Shown here one piece after another: positions 28,596 through 55,830 of a DNA stretch of 64,000 nucleotides. Source of the DNA: Candidatus Pacearchaeota archaeon. GTDB lineage: Archaea > Nanobdellota > Nanobdellia > Pacearchaeales > GW2011-AR1. How positions within the stretch are numbered: position 1 is the stretch's first letter; each line of letters begins with the position of its first letter. The DNA is taken from assembly GCA_964202455.1 (NCBI GenBank), contig CAXNIJ010000003.1, positions 43,352 to 107,351 on the forward strand, in the 5' to 3' direction. The translations under genes were made by a program, and so were the position numbers. The notes under the pieces are model-generated. The model saw only the letters and a program-made list of their open reading frames with translations. It was not told the DNA's origin and did no database searches.

Positions 28596-28768
28596 GTCAG
28601 TGTCACAAAACCCTCTGGTTTTGACCTCGGCTTTTAAGCCGAGGCTTGTTTGTGGTTTTGCGGCCGCCGGAGAAATCTGCAGCAAAAGAACCGCGGAATA
28701 AATCCTCAAAGACAAAGTCTTTGACGGTCGTCAAGAACTCTGTTCTTGAGATCCGAGGATTTCTACGA
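28596..28768. ncRNA. GC-enriched structured element A (hairpin-chain family), class unknown
   Basis: Perfect hairpins: CCTCGGC/GCCGAGG (28625-28644), TCAAAGAC/GTCTTTGA (28706-28724) and TCAAGAAC/GTTCTTGA (28731-28749). A closing AAATCCTC/GAGGATTT pair is at 28700-28707 / 28755-28762. GGTTTTG occurs twice and either copy can pair with CAAAACC. Confidence 0.4.
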
Positions 28769-37494: not shown

Positions 37495-37709
37495 AGGAAG
37501 ACCGAGAGAACTATTGGTTCTCGAGTGTATCCAAGAATCAAATATTCTTGACGAAACTACACTCCTTCAAGAATTTTCAATCGTCAAAAATCGCTGATTT
37601 TTGATCGCACTCAAGAATACGAAGAATGGGTATTCTTGATGTCTTGACTGCCGTCAAGGACAGAAGTCCTTGAAGTTTAAGCCACAGTGGCGCATCGTTT
37701 TCTTGATTC
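37495..37709. repeat. hairpin-chain element B (TCAAG...CTTGA family)
   Basis: Perfect hairpins at 37506-37522, 37532-37550, 37584-37604, 37611-37639, 37643-37658 and 37654-37673. The twin hairpins at 37584-37639 are separated by the 6-nt linker TCGCAC. The 35-nt module at 37675-37709 is shared with element D. Confidence 0.5.
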
Positions 37710-42060: not shown

Positions 42061-42190
42061 GGTATTCTCTAGGCAGATATACTGCCTTCGCAGAATCTCT
42101 AGCGCGTTCAAGAATCATCAAGAATCTTTGTTCTTGAGTGCTCTCAAGAATAAGAAGATATTCTCGAGTTATTAAAAATGAATTCTTGAC
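42061..42190. repeat. hairpin-chain element C (TCAAG...CTTGA family, more degenerate)
   Basis: AGGCAG/CTGCCT hairpin at 42070-42086. Tandem TCAAGAATC x2 at 42107-42125. TCAAGAA/TTCTTGA at 42117-42136, then the 6-nt linker GTGCTC, then TCAAGAAT/ATTCTCGA at 42143-42166 (7 of 8 pairs). Confidence 0.35.
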
Positions 42191-47100: not shown

Positions 47101-47130
47101 AGAGAAGTTTAAGCCTTTGCAAACTTATCT
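47101..47130. repeat. conserved stem-loop AGAGAAGTTT-loop-AAACTTATCT (copy 1 of 3)
   Basis: 9 of 10 stem pairs. The loop AAGCCTTTGC is shared with copies at 52601-52680 and 55801-55830. It lies between convergent genes. Confidence 0.45.
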
Positions 47131-49330: not shown

Positions 49331-49479
49331 TCAAGAAATCAAAACTTAGAGAATATTCTATTCTCGATAGCACTCAAGGACTCACGTCTTTGAGGCTGAG
49401 AAAAACTATGTGTTTCGAGGCGCTCAGAAACTTTTAGTTTCTGACGTTTAAGCAGTGGTGGCGCGTCGTTTTTTCGATT
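49331..49479. repeat. hairpin-chain element D (TCAAG...CTTGA family)
   Basis: GAGAATA/TATTCTC at 49349-49365, then the 8-nt linker GATAGCAC, then TCAAGGAC/GTCTTTGA at 49374-49393 (one G-T pair). CAGAAAC/GTTTCTG at 49424-49442. The 35-nt module at 49445-49479 matches element B at 28 of 35 positions. Confidence 0.5.
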
Positions 49480-52600: not shown

Positions 52601-52680
52601 AGAGAAATTTAGGCTCATCAAAAACCTAGTTTTTTAGTGCCGTCAATAATTTTTGATTCTTGAGGTTTGCAAATTTCTCT
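52601..52680. repeat. conserved stem-loop AGAGAAATTT...AAATTTCTCT (copy 2 of 3, expanded loop)
   Basis: 10-bp perfect stem (52601-52610 / 52671-52680) enclosing a 60-nt loop that starts AGGC and ends GGTTTGC. The G-C pair of the other copies is replaced by A-T. Confidence 0.45.
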
Positions 52681-53204: not shown

Positions 53205-53395
53205 CGCCCACGCCCCGAGTCGAACGGGGAAATCCCGGAGGAAAGCGGTTTACTTGTCTCCTGACGAAGGGAGGTTGACCGTCAAGGCTTCAAGGATTTA
53301 CAATCCTTGACAGCACTCAAGAACCTCAAGGTTCTTGGTGAACCGTAGGTTTCTTACGTCTCAAGACCGCCGGAGTACCGTTGTCCCACGTGGGC
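53205..53395 (-). tRNA. tRNA-Ser (anticodon UGA) with ~109-nt intron in the anticodon loop (approx. 53250-53359)
   Basis: Minus-strand read: acceptor GCCCACG/CGTGGGC, discriminator G, 3-bp D stem GGA/TCC, anticodon stem GCGGT/ACCGC, loop CTTGAGA, 15-nt variable arm, T arm CCCCG-TTCGACT-CGGGG. CUUG (32-35) can pair with CAAG just before the 3' splice site, flanked by the 3-nt bulges AGA and UAA. Confidence 0.85.
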
Positions 53396-53441
53396 ATAGA
53401 ATAATTATATAAAAAGCACTTATAAATGTACCTCTGCTCGT

Positions 53442-55800: not shown

Positions 55801-55830
55801 GAGAAGTTTAGGCTTTTGCAAACTTCTCTT
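55801..55830. repeat. conserved stem-loop AGAGAAGTTT-loop-AAACTTCTCT (copy 3 of 3)
   Basis: 10-bp perfect stem with loop AGGCTTTTGC. It lies in the 344-nt divergent spacer between rpl1 and the GT2-TPR gene. Confidence 0.45.

Follow-up and report, generated by a model that had tools for sequence, protein, structure and literature searches.

A dispersed twin-hairpin repeat within the intron of a tRNA-Ser(UGA) gene of a Pacearchaeota archaeon

How does an archaeal tRNA gene come to carry an intron of 109 nt, part of which recurs as a repeat elsewhere in the same genome? This question is raised by a class II tRNA-Ser(UGA) gene of a Candidatus Pacearchaeota archaeon, which lies on the minus strand at positions 53205-53395 of a 64,000-nucleotide stretch of DNA (the window in what follows, corresponding to G000:C3:43352-107351; positions are those of the window unless a contig or locus is named). 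The source genome, G000, consists of 950 kb in 12 contigs with a G+C content of 34%, and is estimated to be ~89% complete; public sequencing runs assign it to lake water. The precursor read from the sequence is 191 nt long. In our judgment the locus is a real tRNA-Ser(UGA) gene with a relaxed-motif intron at position 37/38, quite probably enlarged by a single unit of a dispersed twin-hairpin repeat, here called family B, that entered an older intron derived from a different module, here called module A.

The strongest evidence comes from orthologous genes in which the repeat is absent. A pattern spanning the D arm, the anticodon stem and the first bases of the intron was found on two metagenome contigs only (L043 and L044), which are identical where they overlap and come from the same organism; the gene upstream is syntenic with that in G000 at 68% nucleotide identity. 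The L043 tRNA-Ser(UGA) (L043:12198-12337) has exons that differ from the focal gene at just three loop positions, with all stems intact, and an intron of 58 nt. Alignment of the two precursors (alignment A1) shows that the focal intron equals the L043 intron plus one uninterrupted block of 53 nt, at precursor nucleotides 56-108 (window 53288-53340). The same 53-nt gap is present (alignment A4) in G014, a member of the same genus with a 57-nt intron, in G050 from another genus (67 nt), and in G054 from another family (78 nt). The block is exactly one family-B unit, its boundary being ambiguous by 1 nt; the insertion point lies in the 3′ arm of the first hairpin of the older intron, at GGTT^CCTTGAC, and no target duplication is seen at the unit in alignment A1.

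Because outgroups with a homologous intron lack the block, parsimony points to a gain, and the repeat most likely inserted into an existing intron in the G000 lineage. A preliminary description of this DNA had offered insertion of a repeat into the intron as one of two explanations and had proposed looking at tRNA-Ser in relatives; the filled and empty alignments bear out the former, and the relatives provide both homologous introns without the block and genes with no intron. The intronless form is found in seven sampled relatives (G003, G005, G007, G008 and G009 of the same genus, together with G027 and G032), and introns unrelated to the focal one interrupt the gene in G006 (17 nt), G004 (29 nt), G034 (about 12 nt) and G025 (62 nt).

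A second filled and empty pair occurs within G000 itself. A 30-nt stem-loop is present at 47101-47130 and at 55801-55830, and at 52601-52680 it carries a 50-nt twin-hairpin unit in its loop; this pair was aligned by eye, as MAFFT left the gap unopened. In their empty forms, the intron site and this one read GGTT^CC and GGCT^TT at the break, a sample too small for a general rule. Composites of the stem-loop host and a family-B insert are also seen at C7:48961, C2:67667 and C1:40125. In G007 an intergenic copy of module A is interrupted by family-B hairpins after the same CCTACGGT, a second nesting at the same spot of module A.

The inserted block contains two exact hairpins, at 53290-53310 and 53318-53337, and each of these strings occurs once in the window with none expected in shuffled sequences. 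Three rounds of nhmmer with a profile started from the intron yield 144 strand-hits that merge into 57 loci in the whole genome, with the intron copy matching the family profile at E = 2.8e-9. Family members in the window lie at 28703-28750, 37507-37675, 42115-42168, 49350-49395 and 52615-52666, and all four intergenic relatives named in the preliminary description, at 28.7, 37.6, 42.1 and 49.4 kb, are matched by the profile. Each unit has the same plan, two hairpins separated by a linker of 6 nt, the first of them with arms of the TCAAG type, and units also build larger mosaic elements of 150-310 nt that are arrays of reshuffled modules. Perfect 9-bp hairpins of the family type number 55 in the genome, with 15 distinct arm sequences, compared with 0-1 in each of 20 shuffles, and the palindromic stems are kept complementary despite the variation in arm sequence. 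Most of the loci (49 of 57) lie outside long open reading frames in a genome that is 82.5% coding; 14 are located within convergent gene pairs versus 5 in divergent pairs, the two kinds of pair being about equally common (160 and 157). The units start with CGTC (34), CATC (22) or CCTC (22), and no fixed insertion target word was found upstream of them, the words there being varied. With many, mainly intergenic copies, conserved stems, and both filled and empty sites, family B is a dispersed hairpin repeat of the REP/BIME/MITE-like kind.

The interrupted gene has the features of a genuine tRNA-Ser(UGA). Re-reading of the exons gives perfect acceptor (GCCCACG/CGTGGGC), anticodon (GCGGT/ACCGC) and T (CCCCG/CGGGG) stems, the discriminator G73, a variable arm of 15 nt and a 3-bp D stem with a GG-containing loop, in accord with the clean class II tRNA reported in the preliminary description; CCA is not encoded at the end of exon 2. 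Joining of the exons (CUUGAG followed by A) restores a 7-nt anticodon loop, CUUGAGA, which places the intron between positions 37 and 38, so that the 109-nt insert previously noted after the anticodon loop is an intron at the canonical location. Gene predictors agree in part: ARAGORN calls tRNA-Ser(tga) once window positions 53251-53359 are removed, and its intron mode recovers the gene with a 109-nt intron but sets the boundary 2 nt off, leading to the name Thr(tgt); the default mode misses the gene. The unspliced sequence has no match to the Rfam tRNA model RF00005, even at E <= 10 on 601 nt, and Rfam searches of the locus in gathering and E-value modes report no family of any kind. The same tRNA model scores 53.6 bits with the intronless orthologue of G007 (L007) and 41.8 bits with an orthologue carrying a 17-nt intron (L010), and compensatory changes are seen among the orthologues in both the anticodon and acceptor stems (alignment A4).

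The exon sequences occur once in the whole of G000, where the other serine tRNAs have the anticodons CGA, GGA and GCU, and no tRNA-Ser(UGA) gene besides this one was found in the genome, which is 89% complete; the second intact copy that might have marked the locus as dispensable was not found there. Among the serine codons UCA ranks second in use (17.8 per 1000 in a crude set of open reading frames). Because there is no second copy of the exons, the other serine tRNAs have different anticodons, and UCA is common, we count the gene as needed; it is real and probably essential. A second 'Ser(tga)' called by ARAGORN, at C2:34280-34413, proves to be Leu(UAA) when the intron boundaries are corrected.

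The coordinates of the features of the gene and of other intron-containing tRNA genes in the genome are given in Table 1.

Table 1. Features of the tRNA-Ser(UGA) locus (window positions) and the other intron-containing tRNA genes of G000 (for these genes, position refers to the gene and length to its intron)
Feature	Position	Length	Strand	Basis or remark
Exon 1	53360..53395	36 nt	(-)	tRNA positions 1-37; sequence, ARAGORN on spliced form, alignment A4 to intronless orthologues
Anticodon TGA	53361-53363		(-)	Within exon 1
Exon 2	53205..53250	46 nt	(-)	Position 38, 3′ half of anticodon stem, variable arm, T arm, 3′ half of acceptor, G73
Intron	53251..53359	109 nt	(-)	Canonical 37/38; 7-nt anticodon loop, intronless orthologues, length in ARAGORN intron mode
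Inserted twin-hairpin unit (family B)	53288..53340	53 nt	(-)	Hairpin CAAGAACC/GGTTCTTG, 6-nt linker, hairpin TCAAGGAT/ATCCTTGA
Module A front	53341..53358		(-)	5′ arm, loop and start of 3′ arm of hairpin; 18-nt exact match to C9:19759-19776
Module A remainder	53267..53287		(-)	Rest of hairpin 3′ arm and 'tail'; 21/21 identical to L043
Central helix, 5′ strand CUUG	53362..53365		(-)	tRNA positions 32-35; minimum-energy fold
5′ bulge AGA	53359-53361		(-)	Splice motif
Central helix, 3′ strand CAAG	53253..53256		(-)	Minimum-energy fold, partition function
3′ bulge UAA	53250-53252		(-)	Splice motif
3′ intron hairpin CUCC...GGAG	53258..53273		(-)	Adjoins central helix; hairpin kept in homologues though sequence differs
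Candidate TATA-like A/T-rich box	53405..53415		(-)	Upstream of gene; inferred from sequence; similar box in L043
Second candidate TATA-like box	53419-53428		(-)	Inferred from sequence
Tyr-GUA gene	L040:277-516	167 nt		
Glu-CUC gene	L036:369-589	146 nt	(-)	
Lys-CUU gene	L038:308-512	130 nt		
Arg-UCG gene	L037:368-556	117 nt		
Ile-UAU gene	L039:242-398	82 nt		
Leu-UAA gene	L041:281-414	48 nt		
CAU tRNA intron		17 nt		
Thr-CGU intron		16 nt		
Thr-UGU intron		14 nt		

In the minimum-energy fold of the precursor the anticodon stem runs on into a 4-bp helix, CUUG/CAAG, with UAA bulged on the 3′ strand. These are the helix and one of the two bulges put forward in the preliminary description; the other, AGA at the 5′ splice site, is predicted to open into a multiloop with three hairpin domains, and there is no inner helix h′ between the strands. 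A strict hBHBh′ motif is not formed: the fold has the outer helix, the 4-bp helix and the bulge on the 3′ side, but no inner helix. The predicted splice motif is a relaxed bulge-helix-loop form rather than a member of the strict class, as had been suspected, although the helix thought to be missing was the outer one, which is present as the anticodon stem. By eye, the other long introns of G000 show the same weakness of the motif. Bulge-helix-bulge (BHB) motifs are cut after the second of the three nucleotides in each bulge, and cuts at these points in the focal precursor give exactly the 37/38 junction. G000 encodes one EndA (L042:1273-1785), of 170 aa and with both Pfam domains (PF01974, 93 bits; PF02778, 34 bits), as well as RtcB (551 bits). 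The architecture of a single ~170-aa EndA looks like that of the homotetrameric alpha4 type, with a divergent second subunit a possibility. In DPANN archaea an alpha4 EndA with an extra loop has been associated with disrupted tRNA genes (PMC5829648).

From these elements a pathway can be proposed in which the gene would be transcribed as a ~191-nt precursor, anticodon-loop nucleotides 32-35 would pair with CAAG near the 3′ end of the intron, and EndA would cut in the two flanking bulges, with RtcB joining the exons and the 109-nt intron being released. The older intron of 56-58 nt would have received, in the 3′ arm of its hairpin and with no duplication of the target, one 53-nt family-B unit, so that the length of the intron would have a historical cause and not a functional one. 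A tRNA intron would tolerate such arrivals because whatever lies between its two bulges is discarded.

Partition-function folding suggests that the insertion is tolerated rather than helpful. The probability of the central helix is 0.80 in the empty L043 precursor versus 0.34 in the filled focal one, and for the anticodon stem the corresponding values are 0.95 and 0.40. With the unit in place, the old hairpin's 5′ arm is predicted to pair instead with the first inserted hairpin, through the 3′ arm of the latter.

Several observations weigh against insertion of a mobile unit into a neutral site of a spliced intron. Given the lowering of the splice-competent helix from 0.80 to 0.34, the insertion may carry a mild cost and not be neutral; a clean 3-nt bulge with an inner helix is lacking at the 5′ splice site, and EndA resembles the alpha4 enzymes, which classically require a strict BHB motif. 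Transcription and splicing of the focal tRNA are predictions from its sequence, and the polarity of the indel was assigned by outgroup parsimony. The nearest family-B copy is only 89% identical to the intron unit over 37 nt, and the insertion would for this reason be either not recent or derived from an unsampled donor. Pfam models for the Y1 transposase (Y1_Tnp, PF01797) and the TnpB zinc ribbon (PF07282) find nothing in G000, and the four congener Y1 loci inspected have no family-B (TCAAG) hairpins within 1.5 kb, their flanks having other hairpins. Y1 transposase genes occur in 7 of the 16 genomes of the genus and are absent from G000; intact genes of the IS200/IS605 type, 139-149 aa in length, are present at L045-L048 (from G003, G006, G013 and G009).

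These points bear in particular on how the block arrived. It could have come by recombination, gene conversion or template switching between the intron hairpin and a family copy, by way of a CCTTGAC-type arm, and we regard this as the most serious competitor, albeit an improbable one. The target hairpin arm resembles the arms of family B and the break falls just 5′ of the shared motif (alignment A1); the family is mosaic and modular, with reshuffled arrays, and a target duplication, a consistent target word and a transposase were all sought and not found. Set against this, the insert is exactly one discrete unit with the usual family ends, and one unit also occupies the loop of the second host stem-loop, where an arm of this type is lacking.

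The effects on the predicted fold also bear on the possibility that the insertion disabled splicing and left the locus as a decaying relic, an idea that the drop in splice-helix probability relative to the empty homologue, the relaxed motif and the alpha4-like EndA would all favor. We consider this very unlikely, as no other tRNA-Ser(UGA) gene was found to read the common codon UCA, the exons differ from those of L043 only at three loop positions and in no stem, the insert lies wholly within the intron, and the splice-competent fold is still the minimum-energy structure; moreover, other single-copy tRNA genes of G000 carry longer introns.

An equally slim chance attaches to the reverse history, in which the twin hairpin is an original and functional part of the intron, for example as a structured RNA released on splicing, and relatives have deleted it. 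Hairpin-rich long introns are common in G000, the focal intron folds much better than shuffled sequences (z = -3.65), and the direction of the change was assigned by parsimony; but precisely these 53 nt are missing from five homologous introns that represent four lineages, among them another genus and another family, and the block is one unit of a 57-locus, mainly intergenic family. The intron also lacks signs of a guide RNA: there is no box C (RUGAUGA) in L001, within 3 kb of the gene, no CUGA in the 109-nt intron and no Rfam snoRNA match, and a box C/D guide RNA in the intron was rejected for lack of these motifs. That the filled intron is an artefact of assembly, with a dispersed repeat collapsed or mis-joined, is barely credible, for although the element is repeated and extra repeat contigs align onto 53290-53326, the gene is spanned without differences by 5.9-kb contigs in two sequencing runs and a 367-nt contig in a third, all three from one lake-water study in which no empty allele was seen (two of these runs may be the source of the G000 assembly).

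The older intron into which family B most likely inserted also has a history. This intron of 56-58 nt is common to relatives, and comparison of sequences indicates that its front is a ~40-nt dispersed 'hairpin plus tail' module, module A. Intron nucleotides 2-19 match a site on contig C9 exactly, and with the L043 intron as query the match to the C9 locus extends over about 40 nt and also takes in the tandem array that follows tRNA-Ile(UAU). Over ~38 nt, module A fronts two other introns in relatives with 90-95% identity, those of the Ser(GCU) gene of G055 (95%) and the Glu(UUC) gene of G024, and it also fronts the Tyr(GUA) intron of G024 and the Arg(UCG) intron of G007. In each of these host tRNAs the 3′ end of the intron differs and is, by eye, complementary to the anticodon loop of that tRNA. 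Module A is found outside introns too, in tandem arrays and next to start codons in relatives. The intron mobility that was the other explanation in the preliminary description therefore applies to the ~40-nt module A front, which recurs in other tRNA introns of relatives, and not to the twin-hairpin part.

Further features of module A were noted. In every host tRNA it starts 1-3 nt past the 5′ splice site with G-T-A-A-G (53341-53358; L025, L051, L053, L056, L064), and the Ser(GCU) intron of G055 retains ACAAG, as if derived from a Ser(UGA) intron. A tandem array of five 37-nt units related to module A lies directly after the 3′ end of tRNA-Ile(UAU) (L039:401-587; G000 C5:103400-103586), and module-A-like arrays are also present in G007 (L062). 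Contig C9 has an intergenic G+C-rich element of ~110 nt (L035:691-791, minus strand; G000 C9:19690-19790) with a cloverleaf-like four-way fold; it holds a module-A copy that includes the 18-nt match to the focal intron, and the surrounding 201 nt (L035:640-840) fold with z = -5.3. Rfam searches of the C9 locus sharing these 18 nt give no match. The single hairpin of the G014 intron was considered as a family-B unit and rejected, being better explained as a module-A hairpin that merely resembles family B (C9:19736-19776).

The focal intron is not the only long one in this genome. An inventory of the kind proposed in the preliminary description reveals nine further tRNA genes with 37/38 introns, of 14-167 nt, each of which splices in silico to a proper tRNA (Table 1). 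Archaeal tRNA introns are reported to span 11-129 nt with medians mostly of 12-25 nt (PMC4090602), so that the focal intron, described earlier as unusually long, is so by comparison with archaea generally, but is mid-range in G000, where introns reach 167 nt; three of them (167, 146 and 130 nt) exceed the 129-nt maximum of that 2014 review. The six longest of the nine (48-167 nt) are hairpin-rich, and those of the Leu, Ile and Tyr genes share a small hairpin with the loop motif TTCGTTAGAA.

ARAGORN misnames most of the six tRNAs with long introns. Its intron-mode names were corrected as follows: 'Arg(tct)' is Arg(UCG), 'Ala(agc)' is Lys(CUU), 'Thr(tgt)' on C6 is Tyr(GUA), 'Tyr(gta)' on C7 is Thr(UGU), and 'Ser(cga)' on C9 is the CAU tRNA.

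Two common blocks amounting to ~45 nt with 2 mismatches (alignment A3) are found in the Lys(CUU) intron of G000 (L038:347-476) and the Ser(UGA) intron of G025, from another family (L012:1537-1598), and intron sequence is in this way common to different tRNAs within the order Pacearchaeales. The G000 Lys(CUU) copy has ~55 extra nucleotides of hairpins in the middle of the intron relative to G025, and is an apparent second case of intron growth by internal insertion. In relatives, tRNA-Ser(UGA) is followed downstream by one or more units of ~84-100 nt that each finish with a repeat of the final ~16 nt of the tRNA (L043:12338-12447, L044:1845-1990, L016 and L017), and none is present at the focal locus. 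These units could be att-like duplications or decoy 3′ ends.

The focal intron resembles canonical archaeal 37/38 BHB introns (PMC4090602) in its position, the 4-bp helix between positions 32-35 and the intron 3′ end, the 3-nt 3′ bulge, and the presence of EndA and RtcB genes. It differs in its length of 109 nt compared with medians of 12-25 nt, in the predicted replacement of h′ by a local hairpin at a multiloop, and in that the intron body is made of dispersed repeat modules. A box C/D sRNA within an archaeal tRNA-Trp intron (PMC4090602) is a comparable instance of a long intron holding a discrete extra RNA module; here, however, the module is a genome-wide repeat and not a guide RNA, with no box C within 3 kb.

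There are also similarities to the tRNA intron 'transposition' of the Thermoproteales (Fujishima et al. 2010, as summarised in PMC4090602), in which near-identical intron sequences are found across tRNA species and presence or absence varies among close relatives. Module A is likewise found in Ser-UGA, Ser-GCU, Glu-UUC, Arg-UCG and Tyr-GUA genes. The hosts here belong to the DPANN rather than the TACK archaea, a second, unrelated element is nested inside module A, and what is shared is only a sub-module, found outside introns as well: in tandem arrays, next to start codons and in a cloverleaf-like RNA.

Family B is similar to bacterial REPs and BIMEs, to CGTC-tagged REPs and to the palindromic elements of Rickettsia (PMC3733652) in having stems of 8-9 bp, a mostly intergenic distribution, and dimers and arrays. 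Further points of likeness to these elements, above all to the CGTC-tagged REPs and the Rickettsia elements, are unit ends of CGTC, CATC or CCTC, the lack of a dedicated transposase, and tolerance within genes of reduced genomes. It is unlike the bacterial REPs in that it is found in an archaeon, joins two different hairpins as a direct twin through a linker fixed at 6 nt, and sits in a tRNA intron. The likeness of family B to the CGTC-tagged bacterial REPs is a resemblance that may or may not reflect homology. The miniature elements derived from IS200/IS605 (PATEs) and the REPINs mobilised by RAYTs have hairpin ends and insert without target duplication. Family B shows the same two properties, but G000 has no Y1 transposase or TnpB that we could find, and family B has no fixed target word.

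Full-text searches of the published literature recovered no description of repeats inside archaeal tRNA introns, nor of such repeats in Pacearchaeota. How introns 'transpose' in the Thermoproteales is left unresolved in the review cited above (PMC4090602), and a 2026 census of the Asgard archaea reports neither a general arrival route for tRNA introns nor a link to mobile elements (bioRxiv 10.64898/2026.10.13.758758). The tRNA-Ser(UGA) locus offers an alignable case in related genomes with three states, namely an intronless gene, a module-fronted intron, and the same intron with a second repeat nested within it. A broader hypothesis, which we advance tentatively and consider rather less likely than not to hold in full, is that tRNA introns in these Pacearchaeota arise and lengthen through one pool of small mobile hairpin modules, the same that is scattered over the intergenic DNA: a module arriving at 37/38 would survive if its 3′ end pairs with the anticodon loop, and later modules would nest within it to give introns of 100-170 nt. 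In a bolder version still, the excised intron RNAs would be the intermediates by which the modules spread. If the module-origin hypothesis is true, the locus would provide a dated series of three states (intronless, about 57 nt, 109 nt) bearing on the origin of archaeal tRNA introns.

Because standard predictors missed or misnamed the focal gene and several others in G000, the tRNA sets of DPANN genomes are probably under-called. The 140-nt and 191-nt precursors form a natural pair of substrates bearing on the structure that a small, alpha4-like DPANN EndA tolerates. The focal case illustrates one way in which archaeal tRNA introns may grow from repetitive DNA, and in a genome that is more than 80% coding an intron can be a safe landing pad for a repeat.

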